Source of the DNA: Lytechinus pictus
Lineage: Eukaryota
Assembly (NCBI RefSeq): GCF_037042905.1
Contig: NC_087250.1
Span: 18,168,001-18,232,000, forward strand
Length of the DNA: 64,000 nt
Direction: 5' to 3'
In this document: in pieces, positions 29,234 to 59,412 of the stretch
Numbering within the stretch: the first letter of the stretch is position 1
Layout of the letters: each line of letters opens with the position of its first letter
Position numbers and translations under genes: made by a program
The notes under the pieces: model-generated
Database searches by the model: none
Told to the model about the DNA's origin: nothing
Seen by the model: only the letters and a program-made list of their open reading frames with translations

Positions 29234-29259
29234 TAATTGAGGTAACTTAGTCTAGGAAA

Positions 29260-35973: not shown

Positions 35974-36041
<68 letters not shown>

Positions 36042-36046
36042 ATCTT

Positions 36047-36092
<46 letters not shown>

Positions 36093-38129
36093 TCATACCT
36101 TGGTCAGTTCGGTCTACTACCATCGGTTTCACGCTTTCGGCGATCTTCAGGCAGACTGATGATTTGAGTTGGTTGTGTCTGTGTGCTGCGATGGGTCGTC
36201 ACACCTGATTGGTTTTCTGGGGGGTCTTTGCCGATGTCTGTGGCGGCACTTTGAGATTATTTATGACCTTTTGTTGAGGCACTATTTGTTGTTGGTGATA
36301 ATTATATACTTCTCTTCTAGGCAGAGATTGCAGAGCCCACTCTTTTTTAGGTTAGTGTTCGACTTCTTCTCTATCCCCCACGTTAATTCAAATTTGGTGT
36401 TTGCTTCCTTTAGTTTCCATATATAATTAGAGAGTTGAGTTTCATTTTTGTATTATTCATGCTTCATTGGTTTGATGTGATTCCTGTATCTGTCCTTGAA
36501 AGTACCCCCCCCCCCCCCGCAAGACCATAATAGCATTTTTCCTCGTTTTCGTGTCGGATGTTGGCTTTGTAGACGAGGGCCGTTTCTAAACATCTTCCTT
36601 GCAGTGGGCACTGCGTTTTCATACGACAGTTACATTTCCGCCTCGGCTCCTCCTCTTTAGTCTTGGCTTGTGTGATGACTCTCTGGTTGTGTGATTTCAT
36701 TACTGCATCCTGTTTCTCATGCAGCTGTAGCTTACTTTAAATGTATTTTTATTAAACATTTGGTGCAGTTTGTTACCCTTCGGGAAGTGTTTGTTTATTA
36801 ACTTCAGGAATTTGCCACCCACGTTTGTCTTGACCTCTGCGTTGTAGGGGGGATTGAACCACGTGATTTTCCTTTTCCTATTTACTCTGCTTCGACTAGG
36901 CCCCCTTCTCTTCGTTTGCATTTGTGTTTTTCATACTGAATTTTCGTATCAAAGCCGCTATTTTTCAGGACTTTGTCGTATGGGGGCGCTGCTTCTTTAA
37001 AGATGCATTCATTTGACGATAGACTCGATATTCTTTTTTCTACAGCTAATGGTATCTTCTTGAGTATAGGAGGGGTTGGTTTGAGTTCTTGTGTATGTAT
37101 AGGGGCATGTTGTTTGGTTTCCTGTAGGGCTGGAATGTACTGTTGTTGAGGTCAAGGGTTACGCCCAGGTAGTCGACGGTCTTAAGGTTGGTCTGGACCG
37201 TAATGCGTAAGCCCATCTGGTTGAATAAATTAATTAGGTCTTTCCGTGACCTATCGGCTCTACTGCCCGAGGCTCTCCCGAGTACGACGAGGCCGTCATC
37301 CCGATAAAGGCCTACACTGTGGGTTTTATTTTTTTTTCATTTTTGTCAGCGCGTAGAGCGCTACGAGTTCGCATACCTCGGCTCCATTGTGCGCCCCCAT
37401 CATCTATTCATCATCTTCATCTATTTCGAGAACATTCGTGTCTTGCATGGCCGAATGCAGACCTTTTGGGGTTTTTGAAGGGGGGTGGGGCAAGTTTCAT
37501 AAAATTTTGCCTGGAATAAAAATGGAGCAAAGTGACCAAGCTTGTCATGGATTAAAAAAAATGAAATTGAATATTTATTTAGTACACACGTTAGTGTTTT
37601 TTTCTTTTAAATACTTCTTAATATTTCCTTTAACGTAGATACGGCTATATAATCTAGAAAATAGGGCTTACATACTACATACTTTTGCATACGTCATCAA
37701 ACGAATTACAACTAGAAACATTTAAGCAAAAAAAAGTAAGTGAATATGATTATCGACATGACGTTTATATGATGTTTTTTTACATCATATTCAGTATTAA
37801 TTCATCAAAGTAAAACCCGAAATACAATTTCATAAAGATAAATTATCGTTAATCTGTGTCAAAATAATTAAGCAACATTGTATTTGTTCTCGAAGTGTTT
37901 CACGCACTACTTCTAGGTCCAGGAGATACAATGTACATTATGGATGAGTTGATTTAAGTAGAATGAAAATAGAGGTTATTTTATTAAGTTTCATATTTTA
38001 CAATATTAATACTTACGCGTCAGTTATGTCACCTGCAACATAAAAAATACAATGAATGAAATGATAATAATAGAAAGCAGTTAAGAGACGCTGATCACTA
38101 CGACTTTAGTTCCAGTGTAATAATTATAT

Positions 38130-38171
<42 letters not shown>

Positions 38172-41100
38172 TACATATATATATATAGTATATATATATG
38201 TATATGGAGAGCTTGATTCCAAAAGGAATTTTTTTTAACAAACTTATGTATCTTAGACTTGGGAATCATATGAAATATATCGCATTTGAAAAAAATGGAA
38301 AGGTTGGTAAAAATTAATTGCAAATTTTGCATATTATCTTGATCTCGTTAAGGAAAACAAAGTTTTTGTCTTCATTAATCGCTTCTGATTCAGCGTATTA
38401 AAACAATAATAGGGTAGATGACGAACTCGATGTATTTTTTTGGGGGGAGGGGTTACATGGCTGGGGCTGGGGTGTGGGAATAATGTAGTTGCCATAGTGT
38501 GCTGGTGTGTGTATGGCTTTCAATCTTTGATATTAAGTAGATATGATGACTTAAATTCATGATTTGTTGCAGTCAACTATTAAAGTGATCATTCCTCCGC
38601 AACGATATTCACAATTTATTTACCTCTTATAATGATGATGATAATAGTGGTCATGATAATAATAAAAAATAATAATTAGAAGGGCTTATTAGAATCACTC
38701 GCGTCGTGTTCGAAATCACTCGGGTTTTGGATTTTTTGCATTTTTTTTTTGAGTGCGATCTTTTTTTCTAACGGTATCTGCAATGGGACAATCACGCTGG
38801 GAAAATAAAATGAAATTGAAATTCGAGTTTCGTTTTAAGCTGGAAAGTGCCTTATAAAATGTACTCGACTTCTGTTTTAACATAACAAAAAAGCAATAGT
38901 CCTCCTTTAGGGCTCCGTCTATGGGATTTTAATGTTTAATTTAAATTTTTGTAATACAGGGAAAGCCGTAAAGGAGGAGAAAATAACAGGGATTAACAAG
39001 GCGATTTCGTCGCTAGCCAACTGTCTTTAAAACTGTTTGAGCTTTTAAAATTAATTTAAGATACGATTTTAAAATCGATTTAAAATTATAAGTGTCTAAA
39101 AGTGGCAGAGTGGTTTTGAAGAGGAGGGAAAAGAGGAGTTGATTGAATAATTAGGACAGGATAAATACGATTTTGAAATTGATTTTGAAATCGATTTTAA
39201 AATCAATTTCAAAGTCGATTTAAGTTCAATATTAGATCAGTTTTAGTATCAGTTTTAAAAATCCCATTCACATTTTTACTGATGCTGATGAGAAATTAGT
39301 TTGGTTGTCAGAACTTTATTTGTCCTGCGTCTAAACTGTGTCCGAGGGACTATTTTAATTTCGGAAGGTAGGAGAGGCAAAGAAAAAATAAGACAAATTT
39401 TATTAGAAAGTGACAATTTTAAGAGCAACATTTTAAAACGCCGATCGAAAAGATCGTCTTCACAGCTCATTACGTATATGCATTAAATCACGGATGGCTA
39501 TGCATACCGCTGAAGAAAATACTTTCGGACGGGCTGCGGACTGGCTGGCACTGTAAAACATACGTTGGATCTACCACGGCTCGACTCACGTTAGCTTGCT
39601 CCATGCTACCGATGCACGTCGTGTCCGACCGCGGCCGGGTCCCGCCTTGGGGCCATTGCATGCAGGCATGTCCGCATATGGGAATATCGATGTGGCAGAT
39701 ATGGCAAGTTCCGACTCGGAGTCATCGTTTAAGACACAGTAGAAGTCCGGATATATTCTAAGTTAGTTGAGCCACATGGCTGATTTGCTTGTTTGTTATG
39801 TTAAAACAGTAGTCGCGTACATTTTATTTAAGGCACTTGCCGGCTTAAAACGAAACTCGAATTGATCAATTTCATTTTATTTACCAGCGTGTTTGTACCA
39901 TTGAAGACACCGTTAGAAAAAAAAATCGCACCGATTAAAAAAAACACGACAAAAATCCAATACCCGAGTGATTTTGAACGTGACGCGGCGCGAGTGATTA
40001 TAATAAGCCATTATTAGAAGAGTGATGATGAAAATTATAAAATAATAATAATTTTAAGAGTAATAACTACACTACTGATGACAATACTACAACAACTAAA
40101 ACTATATGTACTACTACTAATAATAATAATGATAATAATGATGATAAAATGATAGTGACTAGAGTAGAAATCGAGTTGCTTACCGAATTTAGCATTGAAG
40201 ACATGGCCATCGTCACAATGCGGCCGGAAATGGAAACTAAAATAAACATCAGAGTTACCGGTCGCTTTCACTAAGAAATTGACGACATTTCTATCCAGCC
40301 TGTAGATTTCGTCTAGTGACACAGCCTTCGTTCATGTATAGAAGCAGAAAGAAATTCAAGTACAAAGGTGCTATGAGCCTAATTACATCAGCAGGGCTTA
40401 ACATATTTGTTCGACCCAACCCATTCGATTTTTTTTCAATTTGATATTGGTGATTGACAAAAGTGTATGAATATGATTCAAAATCTCACACTGATTCTAG
40501 AAATGGTAACTACTGAACTTCCTTTGCCCAAATTGGGGATATATCAATGATTTGGAACTATTTTTTGACTGGCGGAAGAATTGAGGCTATTTTACTGTTT
40601 CAGTTGATGAATTTGATCCCATCATAGTTATCTTCATAAATGGCGATTTATTTTTAAAATGAAGTGGCTACGATACCCTTCTCTGGTCAGATATGGAATG
40701 TCAGATATATATCCTATCCAAAGGTAGTAAACATTCGACCCTCTAATTTCACATTTATTTTTTTTAATTAATTTTTCTTAAGTGCCATTTTAACATACAG
40801 GTCTATGGGGAATGTTTTACGCGCGTGACACTGATAGTTAATACAGGCGAATTCCCTATAGTGGATGGAATACCTGCCCAAACTCCTTAGTAGCAAATAA
40901 TTTCTAACTGACATCAATATGTTTAGTCATCAAGTGGAGAAAAATTGATTTAATGGATTAGCAAGGCTATATCACGTAAAGTTAGTAGGTATGTGTATGT
41001 AAGCCTAGGAATGCATATAGACTGGTCGAGTCAAGGCCTCTTTATGTTCTGATTTATCATTGATTTGTGCTAGTGTATGATCACCTACTTAATATTAGAA

Positions 41101-44100
41101 AGACCTTTACAAATTGCTCATGTTAAACCTGTTCTTTGGAATGGGGTAGAGAGGAGATAGAACTTTGTGAACTTTACTGAAGAGAAGAGTGGTGCCTTCA
41201 AGAAGGTATTTAGTAAGGTTAGGTATCTAATAGTGCTCAACTAAAGAGGGAGGGGGTGGATGTGTGCTCCAATCTTAGTCTAGCCCCCCCCCCCCCCTCT
41301 CTGTAAGCCATGCCATCTATAAAATTATCTTTCTTTCTTTCTTTCTCTCTCTCCCCCCTCTCTCTCTCTCCCTTTCTCTCTCTCTTTCTATCTATTTATG
41401 TATCTCTTCCTTCTTACATTTGATAGGCAATAGGCCTAGGAAGATTTTGATATAACAGTTCAATGCAAATGTACTAAAGTAATATGTTCTCATTTTTTTA
41501 TTGTTTCCTCATGCAATCTCATGTATATCTGGTAATTATGTTTGGGGCAGTTCTGGTATCCTGATATATACATCCATATTGTGAATATAACATGTATGAG
41601 TAACACATTAAAATGGGTCATTGCATAGAAAATAGGCATTTTCAATGCATTTCTTTGTGCTAGTGTGAGTGTACAGACATAAAAGAACAGCAGAGTAGCT
41701 ATTAAAAAAAAATCATAGGTCATATAATATAGGTGCCATGATAGTCCAGGAAAAATAACTGATTTTGGGGGTCAACCGCAAACAAATTGCAATAGAATTC
41801 TTTTTACCACAATGCATTTTCCTAAAGTTCCCAAAATGACATACTAAAAGTCCAGAAAAATCCCAGTAGTGGAAAGACGCATAAATCCAAAATGGCCGCC
41901 AGATTTTCAGAAAAATTGAATTTTCATAAATAGATTTTGACATGAACATTTAATTGCCATAAAATTAGTGTCATATGAAAGAGAAATAAATTTCCTATGA
42001 TTTGTTACTATTTATAGGGGATAAATAAATAGTTTGGCTGAGACTTTTTAGTAGAAAAAATGCATTTTTGTCATTTTTTCACCAAAAAATTTGAAATACA
42101 TGTACATGATTTTACATAAATCTAAGGAAAATGGAGCAATTACCTTTAAAGGCTCCAGAAAATTTTATTGATATACTATTATCATGTGGATGAAATTCTA
42201 AATTGATATCATTCTTTTTAAAAAAAATGTATAAGGTATCAAAGTTGACTACTTAAATTTCACAAATGTCGCGTTTTGTATGCATTTTTATAGACGAACA
42301 TGTATAACGTATTTAGTGTATACAGTACAGTAGTTAAAATTGTATGCGTTTATCTACGTTTTTTTAACCACTTAGTTGAGAATAGGCTTTTCTCTAACAG
42401 CTACATAAAAAGGGCTGGCACATTGACGCCTACCCCTCTCAGGGAGCTGTCAAAGTCACGCCCTCTGGCTATATCATGTTGTACAGTGTGTATCAGAATT
42501 AACTCAACCACATATCATTTCAAATTTGTGAAATTTATTAGCTTTATAGTCGAGGAAAAATTACGGATTTAGGGGGTCAACCACAAACAAATTACAAAAC
42601 AATTTTTTTACCGCAATGCATTTCCTTGAAGTCCCCCAAATTTAATAAATATCATTTATTAATCCAAAATGGCGGCCATTGTAAGAATTTTCAGTAAAGA
42701 TTACTTATAGTAGTACAAACACTTGTCTGATCAAAGCACTTAAAAAAAATTATGATCAAAGCATTTACCTTTCACCAGTGTTATATCTTACCATAGGCTT
42801 CGTCTTAAAATCAGGATGCAAGTCAAATTTGGCCTCTGCTGACCTCTAGAGGTCAACGACCTCAAAATATCAGATATTATGGATCCTCACTTTCCCCCTT
42901 CACTCTTAATGTGACTAATCAAGGGTGACACCAAGATATATTGCATGGTCGCAGTGCTGGAATGGAATTAAAACCATAGGTTGTTTTGAGTTTCCTCAAA
43001 GCATGAGAATTGTGGGGATGAAACAAGCTAACCTTGGTCTTTGGGTTTGAAGACTGGACTCAAGCAAGAACACTACCCTGAGAGAGTTAGTTCTTTTGAA
43101 TTCTTTACCTGCTGGTCTTCATGTTGAAAATGTTGAAATTTACACCCGTTAGTTAGTTACCGTGTTAAGTCGGAAGTCCTCAGTGAATAGCCTGTATATT
43201 ATTTCCAAAGTTAAAAACCAGCCTGGCTAGGAATATATGTTGTTCTATAATGGGACCATCTTTTTGTATAGGATGAGATGCTCAAGTAGCTTGTAGAGAT
43301 ATCAGAATAGGGTGATTTGCCTGTAGCTTTTATGCACATTTGGATCTTTCCCAAGTTTGAGGTATTACTTTAGCCTTCTTCAAAATTTATTTGAGATGGG
43401 ACTGTGTAGCACATTGTTAAACAGGCTGACAAGCCATTCTTAAGTATGGAAGCTTAAGGTGTTCATATAATAATCTCGTCATGTCTACATCTCTCAAGGA
43501 AAAAAAGATAAGAAAAAGAAATCTCGGATCTCGTCATGTCTTCATCCTGTGGGATAGATGGTCCAAGATCTTGTCTTGTATACATCCTGTATGAGACGAT
43601 CAGATGACAAGATATGTGATCTAATCATGTCAACATCTTTTTGAAGAGATGATCAGATCTGTTATCTCGTCATGTCTACATCTTTTAGAAGAGATGATCA
43701 GATGGCAAGATCATGGATCTCGTCATGTCCACATCATGTAAGAGAGATGATCAGATGACAAGATCTGGGATCTCGTCATGTCTACATCTCTTAGGGAAAA
43801 AGATAAGATGACAATATCTTAGATCTGATCATCTTTCCCACAGCATGTAAAAAATGGTGAGATCCAAGATCTTGCCATCTGATCATCTCCCACACAGGAT
43901 GTAGACATGACAAGATCTAAGATATTTTCATCTTATCCTTTTCTCTAAGGGATGTAGACATGACGAGATGATTACATCTGGGTGGCAGATCAAAATGTTT
44001 CATTTACTCAAAGGGGTGTCAGCGAAGCGTACTGCCTTTCCCTTCTCTGTTCCTTCGATTTCATTATCCAGGTGAAGTCTCCATTGGACTGGTCCAATGG

Positions 44101-47100
44101 AAGATATCCACTTTGGTGTAGATTGTACTGGGTTGTTCTATTCAGCAGAAGCTGGATAGTAAACTAGTTACATTTAATATTCTAAATACAGTGACCTTTG
44201 AAAGTTTCAGGTTTAAAGATCACAACTTTTAATATTCGCAAATTTTCTCATGTATCAAGGGACCTTAAAAGTTAAAATTAACTATTCTCACAATCTAACA
44301 ATGTTTATAACGAATTATTATTATTAATCCTTAAGGTCATTGCCTCTAGAGTTCAGCACAGGTCAAATCAGAATTGCAACCGATTTTTAAAATGAAACCT
44401 ATGATAAAATATAACAGTGATAAATGTTTAATGCTTTAATCATATTCTTAGTGTTATGATCAGACCAGTGTTCGTACTACTACGATTAATCATTTTGGAT
44501 CACGTTTGATGCAAATTAAACGCTTTTCCAGCACTTGGATCTTTCTGGACTTTGGTATGTCATTTTGGAGAGTTCATGGAGATGCAATGTGTTGAAAGAA
44601 ATAGTATTGCAATTTTCACACCTTGAGGCCTGTATATCATAAAAAAGTGATGCTTAGCGTCAATGTTCCAAAATATTAAGGTCATTGACCATTTCTAGCT
44701 CTCCAGTGTTCAAAGGTCAAAGTTTATAATCCACCAAATTCTTTCTAAAATATCAGGATACCTCGGAAGTTAATATTGAATAATTTTGTTTTCATTATTA
44801 CTATTTGTGTCATGAGCTAATGATGCAAAGCATCAATTTTCTGATATTTTGAGGTCATTGACCTTAAGGTATTTGACCTCTAGAGTCAGCGGAGGTCAAA
44901 TCGGACTTGCATTATAATATTGAAATGAAGCATATGGTAAGATATAACACTGATAAAGTTCAATGCTTCAATAATAATTTTTTAAAGTGCTATGATCAGA
45001 CCAGTGCTTGTACTAATAATCATTAAAAGTTTTCATGATGGTCGCCATTTTAGATTTATGCAAATTAGACGTCTTTCCACTACATGGATTTTTCTGGACT
45101 TTTAGTATGTCATTTTGGTGACTTCATGAAAATGCATTATGCTGAAATAAAAAGTATTGCAATTTTTCACGAGATGCCTGTTTATCATAAACCACTGAGG
45201 CTAAGTATCAATATTGTAATATGTTAAGGTTATTGACCTTTGCCAGTGCTCCAGGGTCAAAAGTCAACATTTATAATACACAAAATTCTTTCTAAAATAT
45301 CAAGATACCTTGAAAGTCAATATTGAATAATTTTGTTTTCATTATAACCATATTTATTATGTACTAATAATAAAAAAAAAATCACTTTTCTGATGACCTC
45401 TAGAGGTCAGCGGAGGTCAAATTTGACTTGCGTCTTGATTTTAAAATGAAGCCTATGGTAAGATATAACACTGGTGGAAGTTTCATGCTTTTATCATAAT
45501 TTGTGAAAGTGCTATGTTCAGAACAATGTTTGTACTACTATCAATAATCATCAAACATTCTTACGGTAGCCGCCATCTTTGGATTAATGCAAATTAGACA
45601 TCTTTGCACTAAATGGCTTTTTCTGGACTTTTAGTATGTCATTTTGGGGACTTCGTGGAAATGCAATGCAATTTTGTTTGCGGTCAAACCTTATTTTTCC
45701 TGGACTATGAGCCTAATTACATCAGGAGGGCTAAATATATTCGTTCGACCCAACCCGTTCGATTTTTTTTCAATTTGATATTGGTGATTGACAAAAGTGT
45801 ATGAATATGATTCAAAATCTCACACTGATTCTAGAAATGGTAACTACTGAACTTCCTTTGCCCAAATTGGGAAGATATATCAATGATTTGGAACTATTTT
45901 TTGACTGGCGGAAGAATTGAGGCTATTTTACTGTTTCAGTTGATGAGTTTGATCTCATCATAGTTATCTTCATAAATGACGATTTATTTTTAAAATGAAC
46001 TGGCTACGATACCCTTCTCTGGTCAGATATGGAATGCCAGATATATATCCTATCCACAGGTAGTAACCATTCGACCCTCTAATTTCACATTTATTTTTTT
46101 ATTAATTTTTCTTAAGTGCCATTTTAACATACAGGTCTATGGGGAATGTTTTACGCGCGTGACACCCAAAAAATACTAATGTCCAACGAACATAGAGGGC
46201 AGCAACACACAGCAGTGCTGCTGGTGTGTGTCGCTGCCCTCTCTGTTCGTTGATAATACCCTAGTCACATCAACATCAACGAAACTACATCCGAACTGAC
46301 CGATTGTGTGTCATCGAAAAAAAACGTAATAGCTTTGATTGTTGCAGTAGTCGGCTCCAACGGTTTGACTTTTGAATTAATTCTATATAATTTTTATATG
46401 TTATACGCAGATACATTCTAGTCTGCAGGCACAGACCCTGATTGGAACTTTGATCAACAAGTGTGCCCCCACGCAAAGACTAGCACATACAAAACTTGCT
46501 GTTCCAATACCTGAGCGAGAGGGCCTTCAGTACACAATGAGTAGGCTGCAATTCAGAGCCTTTACTCGAGTGAAGGGTTTGCCCAGCAGACTAGATATAT
46601 TTTTAGCATACAAACTACCCTTCTCCCACAAAGGTGACAAAGCACAATGCAGCAACAACAAAAAAGGAAACAAATTCAAAGCAAAACAAAAGAATACAGT
46701 ACTGGGTTTGATTCCCAACCATGCATGGCTTGTTTTCCTTCAGCAAGAAATTTACCTGCATTGTGCTGCACTCAACCCAGGTCAAGTAAAAGGGTACCGT
46801 CAAGAAGTAATTCATCAAAAAAACTGTGAGGATCGGAATCGGTAGACTGGCTTAGCCGGGGTGATAAAAACGCATTTCGACCTAACAAGGTTGATAGGTG
46901 CGCTATACATCCTTTATTATCATTATTATTTTTTTATTTATTACAATATTGTTATGATTGACATTGAACTTTTAGATATTAGACCATGAAGGCCTATCAC
47001 TACTTTGATGATATTTTGTAAACATAAAAAATGTATAAATCACAAATATTCACTGCGCAAAATACAAGAATGAATATGTGCATTACACTTTGTAGTCATT

Positions 47101-50100
47101 CACCTATACTTGGTGATTTGAAGTTCTTGTTATTTGGTTTAAAATGAGGAGTATGTTATCAGCCAGTGATGAAATCCTAAGAATGATATGATTTATGACG
47201 CAGCAGATTTTTTTTCGTTGATTTTCAATTCCATTTACCTTTTCACTTTCAGTCACGTGACCACTGTTTACATCACATTTGATCTTGAGTTCTCCCTTCT
47301 CCCAGAGGACGAATATTTTCTTGGTCGGTGCCATTTTGACGTAACCAAGCTTTTCTTCTTCAGTACCAATTATCTGTTTATCAAAGAAGAAATAGAAGAA
47401 GAAGAAAAGAAGGTGATGATGACGAAGAAGAATAATTCACATTGCCCAAAGGTCTAATAAATATTTTTTAGATTATGTTCTTCAAACTTTTCTAGCTTAT
47501 CTAACTTTTGATTTACATTAACTCAAGATTAAGACAGTTTTGAAAAAAATGACCGTCAACGCAAGTAAAAAAGCAAAAAATCAACTCTTTAATGTTTTCA
47601 ACTTAATATTTTTTTCTGAAAGATAAATACATAAATGAAAAAGTAATTAAATAAATAAATGAATAAATAAATAAATAAATGAATAAGTAAACAAATAAAG
47701 AAGTAAATAGATGAATGAATGAATAAATAAATAAGACAAAATAAAAACTCCAACCATACATTTTGACAATAACATGATAACATTAAAACATAAATTCATA
47801 ACATTGAGCTAGCACAAATATGATAGTTTTTATAATGATTTTGATGATAATATCTCACGTCTTCAAGGCCTGGGGTGTCATTGTACAAACGTAGGTGGCA
47901 GCATTGCGGTTGTAGACGGCTGAGTGATTTGGGAAGGTAGGGCGTCGAAGCGACTTGCTTTCCCAGGAAATAATCCGAAATTACCATGAACAGTTCATAG
48001 ATTGAGAAGTGGTTGATATACACTTCAATTATGTCTTGCCTGACAACGCACCGGGGCATCCCAGTTGGTGATAGCTCTTCCTTGGTGACTAGAATCATGG
48101 AAAATTGATTCATTTGAAATTATCTTGATTTTCATCTTCATCTTGATTTACTGGTTAAGTTATACATGAAAAAATATTGTCTCTATAATAATGGCTGTAT
48201 GATGATTATGATGATGCCGATTATATGTCAAAACAAATGTTATGCATTAGGGTAACAGTAACATTAACAGTGTTTTGTTAATGCCTTTTAGCCTTTATTC
48301 AGATAATATCACATTTTTTTAACATACAAGGGTAATAAATAAAATATACGCAATAAAGTGAAGTACATGTATACAGCAATATAACAAATGAAAATGTATA
48401 CATTATACATTATGATGATGGGTGACGTCCCCATGTTCAATATAACGCCCTCATCTGGTCGTATTCTTTGAGGTAAGGTCAAAACCCACAATGCAATGAA
48501 TGTGATCCTTGTGGCTAGCTATAATCACGTGATGGCATTTTTACCAATCACCGATTTAATCTCTACAACCCGTGTACTATCAAGTTTTATTTACCTTTAT
48601 TATTGAAAAAAAAAAAGATTCATTTGAAATTATTTTATTTTCATCTTCATCACTGGTTAAATCATACATAATAGATATTTGTTGTCTATAATAATAGCTG
48701 CATAATGATTATGATGATGGCGATTATATGAATTTAACTATGTGTCAAAACAAATGTTATGAATTAGGTTAACAGTAACATTAACAGTGGATGACGTCTC
48801 CATGTTCAATATAACGCCCTCATCTGACCGAAATATTTGAGGTAACGTCAAAACCTACAATGCAATGAATGTGATCCTTGCGGCTAGACACGAGCACGTG
48901 ATGGCATTTTGACCAATCACTGATCCAATCTCTAGAAGCTGTGTACTATTAAGTTTTATTTACCTTTATTATTGGACAAAAAATTGATTCATTCGATTTT
49001 TTTTTCATCTTCATCACCGTTAGGTTTATGCATAATAATTATTGTCTCTTTAATAATGGCTGTATACTGATTATGATGATGGCGATTATGTGAATTAGAA
49101 ACTATATTTTAAACAAATGTTGTGAATTAGGGTAACAGTAACATCAACAGTTGGTGACGTCTGAATGGCCAATATAACGCCTTCATCTGATCGTATTCTT
49201 CGAGGTAACGTCAAAACCTACATTGCAATGAATGTGATCCTTGCGGCTTGATCCTTGCGGCTAACTATGATCACGTGATGGAATTTTGACCAATCACTGA
49301 TCCAATCTCTAGAAGCTGTGTACTATTAAGTTTTATTCACCTTTATCGCCCTGCGTGACGTGCATGTTGACCATGACCATAGAGGGATCTGTTAATATTG
49401 CGCAATGGGGGACCACCAACCTCAATGGGGTATCAAAAATGGTCCCCGATGGCTCGAAGATCACACCCGGTGACACAAGTGCCTCATCCTCTGTGATAAG
49501 GGGACTCGATGGCTGTGGTAGAACCTAAAAGAGAGAGAGAGGGGGGATAGAGAATGCTGGCTTTAGGGATCTTAAATAACAGCACCAAATCATTACGGAA
49601 TCTTTATGCAGACTTTTACCGACAAAAAGAGTCTTGTATTCCTAATATGTAATATTTCCTTATTCGCCCTACAAAATCTTGAATGAACCTGTTATCTCTT
49701 ACGTAACATGCAATCGGAAAATAATAAATTGATACATCCAGTAGTTATTATACTCAGGTTGATAATCACTCTACAACAAAAAAGGGCTTAAAACGAGGGC
49801 TATAGAAATTGGGAAGGGGCAGGGGTCCGGTCATTTGTTTGACAAACGTACAAAAAACGTAAAAATGATAATCTGATTGTGAATTTTCGCATGATCAGCC
49901 CCTCCCCTACTTTCCGCCTACGCCCCAAATTTCAAAATTCGTTCCATTGCCCATTGATAAAGTCAGTAAGGAGTGTCGCACTGCGATGAAGAACGCATCG
50001 TAGAACACAGGTAATGTATTGTCAAAAGGACAAATGTCAAATGCTCTTCATGACAAAGCACAACCAAAAGTCTTTAGTCGCTTTGAACTTACGAACAGCT

Positions 50101-53100
50101 TTATGAAACACCCACCAGAGGTCATAGGGGCAGATTTAGAATGGTAACAGAGTTTTTGGTTCAGAATAATGTTAAAGTAATGATTAGGGTTACTTTATTT
50201 AGTTTTGGAGGTTAGAATCTATAATTGGCTCAACGTGCCTATTTTCCATCGGATCAATTATCGCAAGAGCAAATGTCATGGAACATAATCACCCAGCCTA
50301 CCTTCATCGTGATTTTGCATTCCTTTCGTAAAGCAAGGGCTGGGATAAAGAGACTAATACCATGAGCAGGTAGCACAATTGTACCTCCTCGAGATGGATG
50401 GATCATTTGACTAGACATGTCTGGATCTGATAATAAAAGGAATAATTAATGGCCTGTTCATGATCAAGGTTTGTTATTCAATTTACCTTTAATTTCAAGG
50501 ATATTTCTGGAATAAAAACAAAATATTTTCTTTTTTTGACAAAAGACAAAAGTTTTGACACATGTAGGTTGAAATCAATAAGGTATAGCATATTGTACAG
50601 TAAAACCCAACACAAAAGCAACAATTATCACATAGCATAAGATGAACGATTACAGAACATTGACCATACGACACGACGTCAGCGACCACAATAAAAGAAA
50701 ATAGCATTTAAAAATCCGCTAATATATAAACTACAAAGTTTTAGAATCAATAGGATTCATAAGTAGTCAGACACATGAATTATGCAAAAAAACCAATGTT
50801 AAATTCAGAATATTGATTTCCAGATCGTTAAAAATTATTAAGAATAGGAATGAATGGAAGGTGAGGCAGAAGGTGGAGTTGATAGGAATATGGGAAAAAG
50901 ATAAAGGAAATGCATTGAGAGATTCAATATAAAATTACATAAGAGGTAAATAATTATGATAAATGTATAGAAAGAACAACGAGAGCAAGAAGAAGAATAC
51001 GAACGAAAGGAGAAGAAGTGGAAGGGCAAGAAGAATCAAAAGTGGAAGGGCAAGAAGAATCAAAAGTGGAAGAACAATACCATATTAAACGAGAGGAAAC
51101 AAGTAATTGAATGAAAAGACAGCTATAATGGGAAAAAAATAAAAAGTAAATATACATATAGTTAGAGTGTAAGAACAACCCTCTTGTTCCTAAAGTTGAC
51201 AAGTGGAATGTTTTTCCATGACCGGTCAGTCAGTCAATAATTTATATATTAACGTGCAGTCATGTGCGACGACTTCGGCGACGAGTTCGTGTTTCATATT
51301 TCTGGAATGCTCTTACCTCTATTAGACTGTACATCATCAAAGGAAGGTAATCTGCAGTAAGCAATTAATACAAAATTATTTAACTTCTAATATCTTGAAT
51401 TATATTTACCACATCAACTGCATTAAAATCATTTAGAATATTTAAAAGAAAACCTAATTTTTTGATGGACTTCTGATGATAATACATAAGTGAAAAGTAT
51501 TCACAAATTGTGTGCCATTTTAAATTGCAAACTATGTTTTTTTTAAGCTACTCGAACTAATTAAACCCAGAGAATATTGAAAGGACAATTCCATCACAAC
51601 AGAAAATTGGTTTGAATGATAACATATACTCCACACTAGCATAACACTGAATATTTAATCAAAATCGGGATTGAAATAAGGTTTTTTCTTTTAAATTTTC
51701 GCTCGATTAAAAAATAACATTTGTACAATATGCACATACTGGTCGGTATGCAAAAGAGTGGACAGATGATGTCACCCAATTGCTGTTTCCTTTGTATTTC
51801 ACTATACAGTGCGTCCCAGAAAAAACGAAACCGAGATTTAGCGATGATTTATCATAACTTAATCATAAATAAAATAGACAAATGACCTACCAATGTAAAG
51901 CTTAGAATCTCCTCTTTCATCTGGTATTACTTAGATTATTCCTCATTCACGCATGATTGAGCAAAAACAATTCGAAGAAAGGATGCCAAAAACTCATTTG
52001 GCGGGGGTATCTGAATTTCAAAAAGAAAATCACATGACTAAAAAGTTCAATATCTTCTCTTTTCTTTGATACCTAAATCACAAAAAATGGTCAAGTAGTA
52101 AAAAAGTTATGATCCCTCGAAACAATGCTTGTAATTCCATAATTTCATTAAAGTTGAATTAAGAAGGGGGAGAGTTTCCATAAATATAGGTTCTACATAC
52201 AATATATAGTATATATAAGTTGTTCAAACACATAGCATGTCACAATAATCCTCTGCCTTCTCGATATTTTGCTTTGAAAGTCTATGAAATTAGCCACCTG
52301 TCAGAGCCCGAGAGACGAGTGTACAGAAAAGTCACTCGGAGTGTGACGTCACCGGGGGGAATTTAGTATAAGAGGTGCCTGAATGTCATACAGAAATGCT
52401 ATGCAGAGAGAGAAAGATATTTTACAATTTTTTTTCAAAGCAACTCAAATCAAACAAATAGGACTGATATGTACAAATCTTTACTTTCCCTGTATAAAAA
52501 ACAGTATGAATAACCACCATGAACTCTTCAATCATGATGTAAGATAGCAAACAGTGAGTTATTGAATGATATTTTCACTATTTCTCATTTATTTATTACG
52601 ATGTTCAATCAAGTGAGTAGCTGGAAAGTAATTCTGGCGGCTAGCTCAGCGCGCGCTGAACGCATAATACTAGTACACACAACACCCAGGCATTGAGTGT
52701 ACTGTTATGGTCTGGTATGTCGACTTAGTTCATGGCCGTGCAGCGATCCCCTGGCGTTTTTTCTTCTTTTCTTTTGTCTTTGACTCCACTTTTATATCCT
52801 CTGGATCATTTCCACTCACAGCTCATTCCACAGAACAATCTTGAACCAAACGTATAGTATTCTTTCTCGGCCTTCTGAGTTGTTTTCTATATTTAATTAC
52901 GCTAGGGGTCACCGTCACACATACAAACGCAATTCGGAAGTGAGTTGAAGACAGAAAGATATATAGTAATTAGTATACATCTCTATGGTTGAAGACAACA
53001 AGAACGGTACGGTAGCTCGACAGCTAGCTGCGCCGGAGCGGGCGGCCGGTCGGCACAAAGCAATTCCGCAACCAACTGTGTTTTTTTGCAAGAGCCGCGT

Positions 53101-56100
53101 CACACGCGGATAAATATGTCATAATAACACGTCTGCTACGTTATCGACTGGTGAGAAGATCTCGATCAAATTTCATATTATTCACCTTGAAATTATTCCT
53201 TTAGGGTCTATGGTATCATTCTGAGGGAATTGACATATTTGGAATAATAGTACGGCCACAAATATTTTAATCATTTCCTCTTTGCAAGTTCTATGGCTCG
53301 CAGATACAACTTCAACTGCAGTTATTCCATATGAAGGAGTACGTGCATAGTACACAAAACGGCACTGCCTTGTTTACTACACCGGGACCGAATACCCCCC
53401 GGTGACGTCACACTCAAAGAACACCCGTCTCGGTAGGCATTGCAGGAGCGAACTCAGGGAAAATGGGTAGGGATAAATCGTTCAAATTCACTATTTTGAA
53501 AAAGAAAATGGGGGGTCGAATCACCTATTAGTGTTTGGGGGGTTGTAAGGTTGCTATTAATGTAAATATCTCAATATTTGGAATCGTCTTCTTAATTCAA
53601 CTTTAAAGGAGAATGAAACTCTTGGAGCAAGTTAGCTTTTGTGAAAGCAGAAAAATCAAAGAATAAGATCAACAAAAGTTTGAGTAAAATAGGACTAGCA
53701 ATAGAAGAGTTATGAGCATTTGAATGTCGAGATCACTAATGCTATGGAGATCCTCCCATTGGCAATGCGACCAAGATCTATGATGTCACAGATGAACAAC
53801 TCTCCCCTTTTGGACACTGAAAATATACCCCAAAATATCTCGTTTTGCTCATTCTAACCATATGACAAACGATTCATCAATTATATAATGTTGTGAAACC
53901 TCTGAACTTGTCCTCTCATAAAGAGAACACCTCACCTTGTGATAGACTCTATAAAAGTGAGAATATAAGTGAAATAAGTACTAAAATAATGAGGGAGTTG
54001 TACGTGTGTGACATCACAGATCTTGGTCACATTGCCAATGGGAGGATCTACATGGCATTAGTGATCTCAATATTCAAATGCTCATAACTTTCTTATTATT
54101 CATTCAATCTTCCTCAAACTTTCAACAATATGTTTCTTTGATTTATCTCTTTGATATGGATTCAGCTGGTTTCAAGGGTTTCATTCTCCTTTAAATAAAC
54201 GTGTTTTCACCGGTTTCCCGCTGAAGCTATCGCACGGTAACAAAAGACTTAATGCATGGCTGAGCGTCAACAAAACGGAGTGTCGAGTGAGTTTGAACGC
54301 TTGCCTGTAAAACCTCTTCATTTTATGAAATTATTGAAATTCAAGCCTTATTTCAAATAACCAGAACTTTGTTATTTCTTGACCATTTTCTGTAATTGAG
54401 GTATCAAATTAAAGAACAGATATTGAACTTTTTAAAAATGTGGTTTTCTTTTTAAAACCCAGATACGGCCCGCCAAGTGACTTTTTGGTATCCCCTTTTC
54501 AAATTATTTTTGTTCACTCATGCGTGAATGAGAAATAATCTAAGCAATTTCAGATGAAAGAGGATATTCTAAGCTTTAAAATGGTAGGTCATTTGTCTAT
54601 TGTATTTGCGATTAAGTTATGATAAATCATCGATAAATCTCGGTTTCGTTTTTTGTGGGACGCACTGTATAAAGGTTTCATTCCACACTGAGCATGTGGT
54701 ATTACCATTGCTTTAACGATTTTATGGTTCAGTCAAGATGGTCCTCTTTATTAAATCTGTACGATTGAAATATCACACATTTCAAACAATAAAAATATAA
54801 AAGGAAGCGTTAGGGACATCATCGACTCTTTTAGTTACATGTCACTGATTTGTGCGTGTAACCTTTTTATGAAAAATAAGCGAAACATCAAAACATCATA
54901 TAATTTTACATTCGATTGTGATGAAATTTCCAATGTTGTGCTTGTTTGATTTTCCTCTATTGACGTTTTCTTTCTGGGGTGGACTTGATCTTTGAATTGA
55001 AAATACATGTACATCAGAACCCGTTTGTACCGGAAATTTAGTTTTAAGAAAGTATTTGTTCACCTTGCCAATATCATCTGTCTGATCATTTCATCTTTTG
55101 CATAGTGGATTGGTAGGCAACCTGCTTCATCCTTAATATCAATCCTGGCTCCATGTTCTAAGAGATAGAACACCAATGCCTTCTCAGGAGATAACCTGCC
55201 ACTGTAGTATTCTTCGGATACCTGCAACGGATAACCAGCTAAGTTTATGGATAATTATACATACAACCTTCAAATTCCACGTGGTCGTTTTATTATTTAA
55301 AGTAGAACTATATTGAAAATCGTAAAAATGGAGAATCATATATCAAATTAAAGGAGAAAATAAGGAGAACACGATGGTGTAAATCATTTATCATGGAGAC
55401 CGATGGAACTCAGTTAATTGATAGTTTAAAGTTCTCTCTCTGAATGCTTCAAACACGCAGAATTACGTCCGCGAAATTGGGGATTTTTTATGACGTCACT
55501 TTCTGTACGAGAGGCGTGATTGGCTCTCCAACGTGAAGCTCCACTTGCATGCAAAACCTGTTGCGAGGGTACGTTTTCTCCACATTGTCACTGAATACTT
55601 CGATCCCGAAATGAAAGAAAACCCAGAATTTTATCTAGATTTGGATTTTCAAATTGATGATTATGAAGATGAAGAGAATGATGATGAAGTTTCTAGCTCT
55701 AGAAAAACAAAGTGACGTGGATAGAGGTATACATTAGGGGAATTACGCCGGTGATTATGAGTCGGACAATTCAACTTGCATGCCGATTCGCTACCAACAC
55801 ATGCAGCTGATAGCTGCTCGATCCGCGGGTCAAATCCATGAAAATGAATTCCATCACGACCATATCCAGACAGAGTCTCTTTCTTCTATCAAACAACATA
55901 ATGAGAATGAAAATAATGATATAACTGTACTTACAAACAAGTGAATATATCCGAACCTAGGCTGAAGGTAAATCAACTCAAGAAATAACAGCAGACGATA
56001 TGCACCGACGATGAATTTCACGTGGCTGGGAGATTGTCACTCGTTCTGTTAGATAAAATTTCTATCTCATTATTTTGACTAAATTACGAAACTCGGAGAA

Positions 56101-59100
56101 TTAGTATTCTACATAAAAATTAAGTAACACCTGGTACTATTTTTTGAATTACGATAAAACCTTTTTGAAGCAAAGAAAATGAGGTAAATTAAAATTAGAT
56201 ATAAAAGATCATCCGCCTAGCTCGCATTCGATTGTAAACAATCAGCAAGGCGAGCACATAGAGTTGGATAAAGCTACGCTCCAACTCTATGGGCGAGCAA
56301 GCCACTGAACTGAAAATACGTATTTTCAGTTCAGTGGAGCAAGCTGGCCATGTGCTTTTGATTGTTTGTTTACAATCGCATGCGGCTAAGTGGATGATCC
56401 TTTATATCTTATTTTAATTTACCTCAATTTCTTTGCTTCAAAAATATTTTATCGTAATTCAAAAAATAGTACCAGGTGTTACTTAATTTTTATGTAGAAT
56501 ACTAATTCTCCGAGTTTCGTAATTTAGTCAAAATAATGAGATAGAAATTTTATCTAACAGAACGAGTGACAATCTATTCCAGCCACGTGAAATTCATCGT
56601 CGGTGCATATCGTCTGCTGCTATTCCTTGAGTTGATTTACCTTCAGCCTAGGTTCGGATATATTCACTTATTTGTAAGTACAGTTATTTTATTATTTTCC
56701 TTCTCATTATGTTGTTGATAGAGGAAAGAGACTCTGTCTGGATGTGGTCATGCTGCATGGAATTCATTTTCATGGATTTGACCCGCGGTGCAGCTAGCAT
56801 GCAGCTGCATGCGTTGGTAGCGAATCGGCTTGCAAGTTGAATTGTCTTACTCATCATCACCGGCGTAATTCCCTTAATTTACCACCATCCACGTCACTTT
56901 GTTTTTCTAGAGTTAGAAACTTTATCATCATTCTCTTCGTCTTCATAATCATCAATTTGAAAATCCAAATCTAGATAAATTTCTGGGTTTTCTTTCATTT
57001 CATGATCGAAGTATTCAGTGTCAGTGTGGAGAAAACGTACCCTCGCAACAGGTTTTGCATGCAAGTGGAGCTTGACGTGGGAGAGCCAATCACGCCTCTC
57101 GTACAGACAGTGACGTCATCAAATTCGAGTCAATTCAGAGACCGATGCGAGGCATATTTCGGAGAGGCATTTTAGCGCTTTTTAATTGGCGATTTCCACC
57201 TTATGTATTATTTTCATTATTTTTGAATGACCTAATGGTAATCCTCACATCATTACCTTTCCACTGATATATAATAAGGCCATATTCATAATCAATATAT
57301 TTCTCCTTTAAAAAGAAGCATGATAGTATTTAAACCTTATTATTTCTTAAAGTGTTTGGTGTCATGAATGTTTTTGAAAGGCTCAACGACAAATCATGGT
57401 ATGAATGAAATATTAACTTTCTCACAAATTTAATAAAGTTGAAATAGTCTTATATACTTTTTTGTTATATCTTATTTGAATGTAACTTTGCATCGTATTG
57501 TAATTAAGAGTGGATGCAGGGAATGCAATGATGATCGTACTCAGTAGACTTCATGCAATATTCTAAAGTCCTAGCGTACCACTGGAGTAAATGTGGTCTG
57601 AGCATAGGGGAGATCAAAGCAACCTGAAAATAAAAATTTGGGGACACCCCACACCTAAGGCGATGTATACGGGGTACATAACCGTGTACATAACCCTTTT
57701 ATCTTTCAGTTAAAGGCCTCTAAGGATATTTTTTCGATGGCTATAATAATGAATTTGTTGTGTCATAAAGTACTGAATTACAGATGACATCCAAATGCGA
57801 CCGCGCGAGAAATATTGATTTTTTTTTAATGCAGAACTAAGCCAATTCAAGCACTTTGACTGCATTTAAAGATAAATCCAGACATTAACAGTAGTATTAC
57901 CCATTTGATGATATAAGAAAATATCTTGAAAAGTCCGAAAAAGTGGCGGGGGATGTATCCCCCACCCCCCCTGGGATTTGAGCCCATGTAGTGTACACTG
58001 AAAACTGAAGCAAATGCGTCTTTCCAAGACTAACCTTTCTGAGTGTTTCGGTGTATTCAACATTCTGTTTCTTGTGGTAGCATGATCTGATAGCTTTATG
58101 AAGACATGTTTGACCGTCACTAGACTGTACATTGAGATCAAATCCTCTAGCAATCAACTTCTCAATAATGGATGTATATCCGTGTTTCAAAACAAGATGG
58201 AAGACTGTCGAATTCTAGATTGACGGAATATGTAACATAGTAGGACAATCATTATTTTATAAAATGGTATCAAAAGCAGCATCAGTGAAATCTTCATTGT
58301 ATATCAAACTGAAACAATTAACTTTTGAATGGTAATCAAAGTACTCTTTTGTCTGTTCTACTGTTTTCCGATTTTTGCGGAACAAACATGTTCGCATATA
58401 TACATCAATATCTGTACAGATTAAAAAAAGTTCCTTCATTGTCAATTAGATGCAAACTGATCAAACGGCACCTTTTCAGCTATTTATAACTCCGTCAAAG
58501 AACATTAATATAGGATGTATGTATCGCCTACCTTAGCATCCGTGCTGTCAACTAAAAGATCAGCAATATCTCTGTCCCCGAGGGTTATGGATTGATGTAA
58601 GGGTGTCTGGCCGTGAATGTCTTCTGTATCACATTGTGCTCCGCCCGCAAGTAGGACTTTAACAACATCAATGTAACCATTCTGAACGGCAAAATGTAAG
58701 GCAGTTGTCCCTTCCTTGTCGCCCTCATTGACATCACCTCCTTTACTGATCAGATATTTGATAGCTTCAAAATGTCCTAACCTAGCAGCAATGTGTAATT
58801 CAGTCTGACCATCATTATTCCCCTTATTGACCTCAGCTCCTGTACTGATCAGATATTTGATGACGTCAAGATGCCCATTGGAAGCAGCACTGTGTATTGC
58901 AGTCAGACCATCATTATCCTCCTTATTGACCTCAGCTCCCTCACTGATCAGATATTTGATGACGTCAAGATGCCCATTGGAAGCAACACTGTGTAATGCA
59001 GTCCGACCATCATTATCCTCCTTATTGACCTCAGCTCCCTTACTGATCAAATATTTTATGACGTCAATATGACCATTTTGAGCAGCAATTTCTAATGCAG

Positions 59101-59412
59101 CCCGACCAACTTTATCTTCCTTATTGACCTCAGCTCCCTTACTGATCAGAGTTTCAATGACGTCAATTTGAGAATGGAAAGCAGCCCTGTGTAACGCAGT
59201 CCAACCATTATTATCCTCCTTATTGATATCGGCTCCCTCCCTGATCAGATATTCGATGACGTCAGTAAGACCTTTGTTAGCAGCAATATGTAGTGCAGTC
59301 TGACCTTCATTATTATCGTTATTGACTTTAGCTCCCTCACAGATCAGATTTTTGATGACGTCAATATTACCATGTGAAGCAGCCTTGCCTAATGGAGTCC
59401 AATTGGCCATTC
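35499..59412 (-). CDS. Spliced gene: ankyrin repeats-ZU5(HFS)-UPA-death domain protein; 11 exons, 796 aa from ATG 59410 (5' exon(s) not identified)
   Basis: Exons 59412-58532, 58214-58035, 55221-55064, 51351-51317, 50426-50302, 49524-49341, 48088-47859, 47373-47239, 40325-40184, 38032-38017, 35805-35499. All introns are GT-AG, all splice phases match, and the 2393 nt joined sequence has no internal stop. Confidence 0.85.
35975..36086. repeat. (TA)n microsatellite
   Basis: Direct observation. Confidence 0.98.
36090..37320 (-). mobile_element. 5'-truncated Penelope-like retroelement (RT end + GIY-YIG endonuclease + hammerhead)
   Basis: [35 protein letters not shown]...CPL.G.C, VYKA...YYGL. 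Confidence 0.93.
36112..36156 (-). ncRNA. Minimal type I hammerhead ribozyme of the Penelope element
   Basis: Minus strand GUCUGC-CUGAAGA-UCGCCGAAAGCGU-GAAAC-CGAUG-GUA-GUAGAC: conserved core, 6-bp stem I, short stems II and III. Confidence 0.8.
38017..38032 (-). CDS. 16-nt micro-exon (GDITDA)
   Basis: ttttttatgttgcag|GTGACATAACTGACGC|gtaagt; phase 1-2 is what is needed to join the 40184 exon to the death-domain exon. Confidence 0.75.
38133..38204. repeat. (TA)n microsatellite
   Basis: Direct observation. Confidence 0.95.
38682..40010. mobile_element. Mutator-like non-autonomous element, ~1.3 kb
   Basis: GGCTTATTAGAATCACTCGCG ... CGCGAGTGATTATAATAAGCC; ~9-bp TSD taattagaa/ttattagaa (one mismatch). 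Confidence 0.75.
40184..40325 (-). CDS. UPA-like exon ([23 protein letters not shown]...NAKF)
   Basis: 142 nt, phase 0-1; acceptor gaag after a pyrimidine tract, donor gtaagc. Confidence 0.75.
40366..40830. repeat. ~465-bp direct repeat; second copy split as 41731-41741 + 45711-46165
   Basis: Near-identical sequence from gagcctaattacatcag to ttttacgcgcgtgacac. Confidence 0.9.
41742..45707. mobile_element. Academ-like non-autonomous transposon, 3966 bp, TAG..CTA termini, TGA TSD
   Basis: TGA|TAGTCCAGGAAAAATAA ... TTATTTTTCCTGGACTA|TGA; repeated subterminal blocks; central ~65-bp minisatellite at 43470-43975. Confidence 0.85.
46763..46930 (+). mobile_element. Degenerate CORE-type SINE 3' part
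   Basis: tgctgcactcaacccaggt...gggtacc...gcttagccggg...cctaacaagg...(tta)n, as at 12712. Confidence 0.7.
47239..47373 (-). CDS. UPA-like exon ([33 protein letters not shown])
   Basis: 135 nt, phase 0-0, acceptor aaacag and donor gtaaat. Confidence 0.8.
47859..48088 (-). CDS. ZU5/UPA junction exon with HFS motif ([10 protein letters not shown])
   Basis: 230 nt, phase 1-0; CAC TTC TCA at 48011-48003. Confidence 0.85.
48105..49345. repeat. Three tandem ~370-bp units filling one intron
   Basis: Units start at ~48105, ~48615 and ~48983; the first carries an extra ~140 bp. Confidence 0.9.
49341..49524 (-). CDS. ZU5 exon ([29 protein letters not shown])
   Basis: 184 nt, phase 0-1, strong polypyrimidine acceptor; ZU5 signature SP.V...P.G..F..P..L..PHCA. 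Confidence 0.9.
50302..50426 (-). CDS. ZU5 N-terminal exon ([22 protein letters not shown])
   Basis: 125 nt, phase 1-0; ZU5 signature GG.I....G.SL.IP..A. Confidence 0.85.
51317..51351 (-). CDS. 35-nt micro-exon ([11 protein letters not shown]), linker
   Basis: Acceptor ttactgcag and donor gtaaga; phase 2-1 bridges the two neighbouring exons exactly. Confidence 0.8.
52152..53602. mobile_element. Kolobok-type non-autonomous element, 1451 bp, TTAA TSD
   Basis: TTAA|AGTTGAATTAAGAAG ... CTTCTTAATTCAACT|TTAA; subterminal inverted repeat gagtgtgacgtcaccggggg. Confidence 0.88.
53607..54190. mobile_element. Kolobok-type MITE, 584 bp (copy of 10684-11267)
   Basis: Same TIRs, same length, TTAA flanks. 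Confidence 0.9.
55064..55221 (-). CDS. Exon, end of ankyrin region ([52 protein letters not shown])
   Basis: 158 nt, phase 0-2, acceptor ttgcag and donor gtgaac; ankyrin-like LLEHGA.ID.KD..G..PIH. Confidence 0.9.
55352..57307. mobile_element. TTAA-flanked (Kolobok-type) foldback element with ~750-bp inverted arms
   Basis: TTAA|AGGAGAAAATA ... TATTTTCTCCT|TTAA; arms ~55490-56245 and ~56360-57120 are highly similar reverse complements. Confidence 0.9.
58035..58214 (-). CDS. Ankyrin exon ([12 protein letters not shown]...[13 protein letters not shown]...TLRK)
   Basis: 180 nt, phase 0-0, acceptor tctag and donor gttagt; ankyrin motifs present. Confidence 0.9.
58532..59412 (-). CDS. Exon with 9 tandem 33-aa ankyrin repeats
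   Basis: ORF 58505..59410 repeats [26 protein letters not shown] with 99-bp periodicity. Acceptor ctacag|GA and donor AAG|gtaggc. Confidence 0.95.

Follow-up and report, generated by a model that had tools for sequence, protein, structure and literature searches.

Self-cleavage of ZU5 domains has, to our knowledge, been studied so far in a handful of vertebrate proteins. UNC5CL carries a membrane anchor at its N-terminus, ahead of the ZU5 domain, and its cut site reads HFS. PIDD1 is reported to cut itself at F445/S446 and at S588 by an N-to-O acyl shift (PMC9162469), and the self-cleavage mechanism of UNC5CL is described as the same as that of PIDD1 and Nup98 (PMC7883297). Self-cleavage of invertebrate ZU5/FIIND fusion proteins in general has already been predicted (PMC8195603), and PMC3482391 mentions expanded ZU5 proteins in sponges, which may bear on the novelty of what follows. 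In the open literature, subscription journals and supplements aside, no account was found of the cut sites of the sea-urchin family described here or of the fusion that one of its genes represents.

The locus lies in a stretch of 64,000 nucleotides of the Lytechinus pictus genome, referred to here as the window. Taken as a whole, it probably represents an intact, spliced gene in which the ankyrin half of a tandem array has been fused to a copied ZU5-UPA-death-domain cassette, and whose protein is likely to cut itself at the HFS motif.

An intact gene carries the HFS motif

The gene was rebuilt from splice signals and reading frame, from an ATG at 59410 to a stop codon at 35499 on the minus strand. 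It has 11 coding exons, all ten introns are GT-AG, and the frame of 796 residues is free of stops. The product is a letter-for-letter match to P0015, which is RefSeq XP_063957159.1, named 'ankyrin-1-like'. The sequence CACTTCTCA, the reverse complement of window positions 48003-48011, encodes His-Phe-Ser on the minus strand, and in the rebuilt gene H547, F548 and S549 correspond to positions 48011-48003. A sequence-only reading of the window had placed an HFS autoproteolysis motif at 48003..48011, some 45 residues past the PHCA strand of a ZU5 domain, and had expected a UPA-death-domain fragment of roughly 250 residues. The rebuilt gene agrees on each point: the codons lie in the intact frame of the RefSeq protein, the spacing from PHCA is exactly 45 residues, and the calculated C-terminal piece from S549 is 248 residues (28.3 kDa), with a predicted N-terminal piece of 548 residues (59.9 kDa). 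The predicted cut, between F548 and S549, is placed by the codons and by the structural register with NLRP1 described below.

The protein reads ankyrin repeats, ZU5, UPA and death domain from N- to C-terminus, with a single ZU5 domain. Residues 1–417 consist of ankyrin repeats, which open the protein, and a short linker, and ZU5 begins at about residue 421 (Pfam ZU5, E 2.9e-13). All exons are on the minus strand. Exon 1 (58532..59410, beginning with the ATG; residues 1–293) encodes about nine regular ankyrin repeats, exon 2 (58035..58214; residues 294–353) atypical ankyrin repeats within a cap region common to the tandem siblings introduced below, and exon 3 (55064..55221; residues 354–406) the last ankyrin-like repeat. 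Exon 4 (51317..51351), of 35 nt, is the final exon of the ankyrin-array half. The copied cassette opens with exon 5 (50302..50426; residues 418–459), in which ZU5 starts, and continues with the ZU5 core in exon 6 (49341..49524), where PHCA is encoded at 49410-49399. Exon 7 (47859..48088; residues 521–597) holds the end of ZU5, HFS, the post-cut strand and the start of UPA. UPA continues in exon 8 (47239..47373; residues 598–642), whose splice to exon 7 (47373/47859) is present in contigs, and ends in exon 9 (40184..40325; residues 643–689). Exon 10 (38017..38032) is a micro-exon of 16 nt that is kept in the donor of the cassette, and exon 11 (35499..35805) encodes the death domain, at about residues 705–795, and the stop codon.

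The Pfam search of P0015 matched neither UPA nor Death, and these two domains were assigned from a structure model and profile matches. Pfam Peptidase_S68 (PF10461) did not match the HFS exon, and genome-wide nothing exceeded the cut-off, so this search was without a positive control. An open reading frame at 56897-57115 was considered as an extra exon and dropped; the frame is intact without it and it is absent from the RefSeq model. The tripeptide by itself is uninformative, as HFS occurs 24 times across the six frames of the window, although the composition-based expectation within XP_063957159.1 is 0.058. Its occurrence by chance is ruled out by position and conservation, not by counts.

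Origin by domain swap

Five tandem sibling genes lie on the same strand at C6:17.82-18.16 Mb, just past the left end of the window, and the ankyrin half of XP_063957159.1 is a sixth copy of this array. The last ankyrin exon of the cap (exon 3) is 94–98% identical between the siblings and the gene under study, and the flanking introns are 78–90% identical. In the siblings the ankyrin half leads into a long tail with two ZU5-UPA units, the first reading HCA and the second HLQ or HLE; four death-fold domains lie between the two units, and a death domain closes the tail. None of the ten ZU5 units of the five siblings contains HFS; their sites read HCA, HLQ and HLE, with no Phe-Ser. In the XP_063957159.1 gene this whole tail is replaced by a copied cassette that carries HFS. 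The donor is LOC129263279, at C6:16.82 Mb, 1.4 Mb away, whose module is 94% identical to that of XP_063957159.1; its N-terminus is hydrophobic rather than ankyrin and is called membrane-anchored. The copied segment occupies 27018..50535 on the minus strand and is an inverted copy of C6:16822631-16834943 (8128 aligned bases, 84% identity). Since copying it has been enlarged by insertions, and the donor's linker exon of 81 nt, which is also found in L. variegatus P0012, has been deleted.

The point of fusion is sharply defined. Sibling-like sequence begins at window position 50538 and donor-like sequence stops at 50535, so that the breakpoint lies within 3 bases, at an A-rich junction in intron 4 (50535..50538). 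The reading frame was preserved because both of the joined introns are in phase 1. Among the proteins retrieved, XP_063957159.1 alone joins the array-type ankyrin cap to a cassette of the LOC129263279 type. In other proteins, 21 ZU5 units follow the same ankyrin cap, and none exceeds 29% identity to the XP_063957159.1 module; the module of the siblings and of the L. variegatus ankyrin relative P0193 is a different one, about 26% identical. The gene is almost certainly a recent chimera of an array ankyrin half and a copied ZU5-UPA-DD cassette, and it gained HFS through the domain swap, an unusual origin that had escaped the sequence-only reading. L. variegatus P0012 is 95.2% identical to the chimera's copy and 94.9% to the donor, with a tree node support of 0.63.

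Copying could also be imagined in the reverse direction, with the cassette native to the ankyrin gene and copied from there to the membrane-anchored gene, and other members of the family (P0027, P0028, P0053) do combine ankyrin with ZU5(HFS). This direction is nevertheless very improbable. The siblings and P0193 carry the other module, and the change from sibling-like to donor-like sequence occurs at one point within the chimera's own intron. The 3.6 kb upstream of the breakpoint in LOC129263279 has no match in the tandem array. The ankyrin gene is identified as the recipient by the former tail still displayed by its siblings, by the linker exon that LOC129263279 and P0012 keep and the chimera has lost, and by this unmatched upstream sequence of the donor.

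Contigs and selection

As the region is rich in tandem duplicates and repeats, the fusion might have arisen in the assembly, or in an annotation that linked an ankyrin fragment to a separate cassette gene, and no single contig from runs X1–X4 spans the whole transcript or joins the ankyrin repeats to HFS. The contigs speak against such an artefact all the same. An unspliced X4 contig of 647 bases covers 50399-51045 with 4 other letters and crosses the breakpoint with more than 130 letters on each side. The splice of exon 4 to exon 5 (50426/51317), which is possible only in the chimera, is GT-AG and skips 890 bases; X4 and X1 each contribute one contig that contains it, which makes two of four runs and two studies, although the runs are not recorded as RNA and their RNA nature is guessed or unrecorded. 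The short side of this joint is 28 and 30 letters, below the tool's bar of 31 letters, and the depths are 7 and 4.9. The joint of exons 3 and 4 is absent from the joints listed (15 of 113). Between the chimera and the next gene, nothing left over from a 3' half of the sibling type is listed. An artefact of either kind is hard to credit, and the fusion is taken to be present in the genome.

Expression bears on a further possibility, namely that the fusion produced a duplicate that is young, weakly expressed and without a function of its own, and whose site may cut although nothing depends on the cut. The window-type contig in X1 has a depth of 4.9 against 85–129 for the donor, contig depth being a poor measure. 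At the HFS codons, X4 contains sequence of the window type; in X1–X3 the spliced contigs that cover this exon have the letters of the donor. The chimera has a short ankyrin stack and has lost the donor's linker exon, and the combination of ankyrin repeats with a cassette of the LOC129263279 type was found only in L. pictus.

The coding sequence, however, has been kept. The frame runs through all 11 exons, and every intron is GT-AG, despite divergence of the introns to about 84% identity, and a second annotated version, P0002, is intact as well. Comparison of the cassette with that of the donor over 371 codons, pairwise and taking in six cassette exons with the micro-exon left out, gives a dS of 0.13 and a dN of 0.029 (dN/dS 0.22, p 1e-7). 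The cassette is under purifying selection. When 23 amino-acid changes were polarised, 6 were derived in the copy, 9 in the donor and 8 were unassignable, so that the copy shows no excess of changes over the donor. A duplicate without function is, on this evidence, unlikely, and the chimera is better regarded as an intact gene.

Conservation of the site among homologues

At least 118 ZU5 matches were found in the L. pictus genome. Of the 30 best-ranked paralogous exons, out of 56 matches and with the gene itself counted, 29 carry HFS; the ranking is biased towards HFS-bearing exons, since the motif is part of the query. In an alignment of 92 homologous ZU5 units, drawn from 164 proteins, the position reads HFS in 50, HFT in 5, HFC in 5, SFS in 3, NFS in 2, RFS in 1, HCA in 10 and otherwise in 16. 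HFS is thus a widespread trait of the family, missing from the HCA branch, and is not special to XP_063957159.1.

A set of 80 units was obtained by setting aside 12 close relatives; HFS is found in 39 of these, and HFT and HFC in 5 each. Where Phe is present, the next residue is Ser, Thr or Cys in 54 of 58 units, compared with 4 of 22 units without Phe; the units, those with HCA among them, are related, and the counts do not stand for independent events. Serine, threonine and cysteine are given as the three residues from which an acyl shift can begin (PMC9162469). Read as a pattern and not as a count of events, the restriction after Phe looks like that of a nucleophile rather than one imposed by packing.

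Structural register of the cut site

An AlphaFold model was built, with an alignment of 92 sequences, for P0002, an older RefSeq model that is 94.9% identical to residues 421–796 of XP_063957159.1; the mean pLDDT is 90.4. It comprises ZU5 (1–139), UPA (about 141–270) and a death domain (about 285–375), and the addition of 420 gives the numbering of the full protein. HFS lies in the turn that joins strands 120–127 and 130–136. The best fold match is UNC5B (3g5b, Z 23.5, rmsd 3.0, 265 aligned), followed among those noted by ankyrin-B (4d8o, Z 18.0), rat NLRP1 (7crw_A, Z 15.8) and CARD8 (7jn7_B, Z 15.2). The ESM Atlas gave a structure match to UNC5CL, with a TM of 0.81 over 267 residues. GAIN domains align onto the ZU5 part of the model, a likeness that is expected from the account in PMC3482391. 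Nup98 is absent from the listed matches of the fold searches with this model, and no ZU5 structure of PIDD1 or UNC5CL is among them; neither absence counts against the site.

The cleaved rat NLRP1 chain 7crv_B, which has 142 residues, starts opposite model residue S129, the counterpart of S549 (model 129–273 on chain residues 188–329, Z 10.3, rmsd 3.7). Human NLRP1 (6x6a_G, Z 9.0–9.1) has its residue 1214 opposite model residue 130, and the residue just before it, Ser1213, is reported to be the scissile nucleophile (PMC3210808). In the family profile the position of F548 falls on L137 of the 3g5b sequence, the Leu of 'DQLG', which is UNC5B L677 by offset from the C663/C670 pair. UNC5B L677 has been equated with the scissile Phe of CARD8, F296, in PMC3210808. 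By the same offset H499, the His of PHCA, aligns to UNC5B H624, the counterpart of CARD8 H252 in the numbering of that paper, where H252 is stated to be required for cleavage; H499 is kept in 85 of 85 aligned units. HFS is predicted from the model to occupy the position at which NLRP1 is cut. The sequence-only reading had named, among its checks, conservation of HFS across paralogues and structural alignment with the PIDD1/UNC5CL cleavage site: the first holds for the 29 of 30 exons above, within the bias of that ranking, and the second was passed with NLRP1 (7crv_B, 6x6a_G) and UNC5B as the references for the register.

The superposition of S549 on NLRP1, together with the nucleophile pattern in 54 of 58 units, makes self-cleavage likely, and by analogy with the characterised proteins we predict with considerable confidence that XP_063957159.1 is cleaved in cis at F548/S549. 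The contrary reading would be that HFS is inherited baggage, in the right place and cutting little or not at all, in a protein that works uncut like UNC5B, with ZU5 holding the death domain closed until it is opened by a ligand. The closest fold is indeed the uncut module of UNC5B. The five siblings and many relatives lack the site, and HFS occurs in only 3 of the 21 ZU5 units that follow the same ankyrin cap. Residues beyond the motif are described as necessary for cleavage of CARD8 and PIDD1 (PMC3210808, PMC9162469), and directly after the cut XP_063957159.1 reads IYEL where P0002 reads ICEM, the changes C551Y and M553L being derived. Yet IYE also follows HFS in the S. purpuratus homologue P0007, H499, H547 and F548 are all retained, and a nucleophile-like residue nearly always follows Phe in the family. 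A mostly uncut protein is accordingly regarded as quite unlikely, and cleavage at F548/S549 is the reading carried forward below.

Proposed mechanism

In the scheme proposed here, S549 would attack the F548-S549 bond in cis by an N-to-O acyl shift followed by hydrolysis, by analogy with PIDD1, Nup98 and NLRP1/CARD8. Cleavage would be constitutive and perhaps incomplete. The products would be an ankyrin-ZU5 piece of 60 kDa and a piece of 28 kDa, with Ser as its first residue, followed by a single strand of ZU5, UPA and the death domain. The post-cut strand (residues 550–556) lies within the ZU5 sandwich, since the alignment with ankyrin ZU5 domains extends to model residues 136–139. As this strand completes the sandwich, the pieces would be expected to stay bound rather than separate, and if the protein is cut we hold this to be highly probable. 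The equivalent post-cut strand of NLRP1 is described as holding the cut pieces together (bioRxiv 10.1101/2020.08.13.250241). The N-terminal piece would in this way act as a removable lid held by the post-cut strand. In the weakest step of the scheme, the UPA-death-domain piece would become free to oligomerise once the ankyrin half is engaged or destroyed.

On the output side, the C-terminal domain matches the death domains of PIDD1, RIPK1 and FADD (Z 11–12), the best match being PIDD (2of5_H, Z 12.2), and in the fold search death domains rank ahead of CARDs. Its closest relatives outside the cassette family include the death domains of the DD-NACHT NLRs P0024, P0083, P0090 and P0091. Of all 22 other death-domain matches in the genome, 11 are located upstream of a NACHT exon and no more than 15 kb from it, as are 8 of the 10 best; this is the analyst's reading of two listings, in one of which 56 of 290 candidates were scored. 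No NACHT exon is listed close to the top two matches, and the matches of NLR type are only 31–42% identical. It may be guessed from this resemblance that the chimera and the DD-NACHT NLRs have a death-domain partner in common, and the freed UPA-death-domain piece might then recruit the death-domain partners that these NLRs use, a step that is weakly inferred. That XP_063957159.1 serves in immune or cell-death signalling of the release type is a possibility to which we give somewhat less than an even chance.

A broader and more tentative proposal is that sea urchins run shuffled sensors resembling CARD8 and PIDD1. The self-cleaving cassette would have moved as a unit, by way of a common intron phase, under different inputs, an ankyrin stack in XP_063957159.1 and a membrane-anchored domain in the donor, and the freed fragment would feed the death-domain pathway of the expanded NLRs. 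The XP_063957159.1 gene would then represent a very recent instance, in which a non-cleaving ankyrin receptor became one of the cut-and-release type.

If the sites are active, a single sea-urchin genome would hold dozens of self-cleaving ZU5 proteins beside a branch that lacks the site. The array and its chimera form a natural matched pair, in which a nearly identical ankyrin cap is carried on a cleavable or a non-cleavable tail. With this pair, the contribution of self-cleavage to a death-domain receptor becomes directly testable, as does the question of whether the release of an active fragment in the style of NLRP1/CARD8 predates the vertebrates.

Comparison with known systems

PIDD1 resembles XP_063957159.1 in its repeat-domain N-terminus, a ZU5 domain that ends in His-Phe-Ser, UPA and a C-terminal death domain. 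It differs in having LRRs, two ZU5 domains and two sites, in place of ankyrin repeats, one ZU5 domain and one site. XP_063957159.1 is not a PIDD1 orthologue, as it has neither N-terminal LRRs nor two ZU5 domains. UNC5CL (ZUD) has the same single ZU5-UPA-DD module, but XP_063957159.1 has an ankyrin stack in residues 1–417 where UNC5CL has its anchor; the donor LOC129263279, with its hydrophobic N-terminus, is a closer analogue of UNC5CL than the chimera is. UNC5B gives the best overall fold but reads QLG at the position of the site and has no cut site.

The FIIND of NLRP1 and CARD8 is alike in its ZU5-UPA fold, and its cut site coincides with the position of the serine. It differs in reading SFS, with a distal catalytic His and a CARD, where XP_063957159.1 has HFS and a death domain. 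Pfam FIIND has no match in P0015 and a weak match in 2 of the 92 members of the alignment. A further likeness to CARD8 lies in the output module, which CARD8 has in common with an NLR, just as the death domain of XP_063957159.1 resembles local NLR death domains. Ankyrins 1–3 combine ankyrin repeats with ZU5, UPA and a death domain, but true ankyrins have the order ZU5-ZU5-UPA-DD and no HFS; XP_063957159.1 is not a true ankyrin and the RefSeq name is misleading. Closest in general architecture is the sea-urchin expansion of ANK-ZU5-UPA-DD proteins (RefSeq models), which has the same ankyrin cap and the same exon phase before ZU5 as the chimera.

XP_063957159.1 is likely to work in the manner of PIDD1, UNC5CL and CARD8, with cleavage as a prediction, and is the orthologue of none of them. 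The cleavage chemistry itself would not be new; what is unusual in comparison with these systems is a domain swap that has yielded a pair with one member predicted to be cleavable and one not.

Insertions in the copied segment and in the introns

The 3′ flank of the segment copied from the donor gene LOC129263279 contains a non-LTR retrotransposon (window 29260-33914, minus strand), with a 942-aa open frame comprising an endonuclease and a reverse transcriptase, and a 247-aa frame upstream of it. In the alignment of donor to window, similarity breaks off at 33906 and picks up again at 27235, so the element was inserted after the duplication.

Two adjoining donor stretches, 16828649-16828892 and 16828893-16829126, match window 46168-46413 and 40134-40366 respectively. 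Hence ~5.8 kb has been inserted directly before exon 9 of the window gene, leaving the exon 9 acceptor intact. Intron 10 contains broken frames (window 36285-37336, minus strand) whose motifs resemble those of a Penelope-type retroelement; a Pfam search of these frames gave no match at E 0.01. This stretch has no counterpart in the donor alignment.

The donor gene and the neighbouring sibling

The donor gene (G000:C6:16809600-16832340, in the L. pictus genome) has hydrophobic N-terminal exons, and a tandem-repeat intron immediately precedes the cassette. A poly-C/poly-A run lies at the breakpoint in the donor. A contig from one sequencing run, X1, is spliced across the donor ZU5 exons and carries 264 extra 5′ letters that are absent from the window.

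Ankyrin repeat number differs hugely between genes of the tandem array. In the sibling next to the window gene (G000:C6:18147400-18163700) the ankyrin stretch spans ~16 kb, compared to 879 bases in the window gene, and has stop codons close to its 5′ end.

ZU5 units elsewhere

A large cluster of ZU5 exons bearing MDHFSW is found at G000:C8:39.87-42.34 Mb. The small contig C37 holds nearly identical copies, which may represent a second haplotype.

The stored protein P0116, of NF-kB type, carries a ZU5, a UPA and a death domain, in that order, after its Rel homology domains, and HFT occupies the ZU5 position aligned with the HFS of the window gene; P0116 might release its Rel part through self-cleavage. 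P0076, a 2645-aa NACHT protein, has three ZU5 units besides its death domains, and all three read NFS or SFS at that position. If it comes from an invertebrate, P0076 would be a non-vertebrate NLR arranged like NLRP1.
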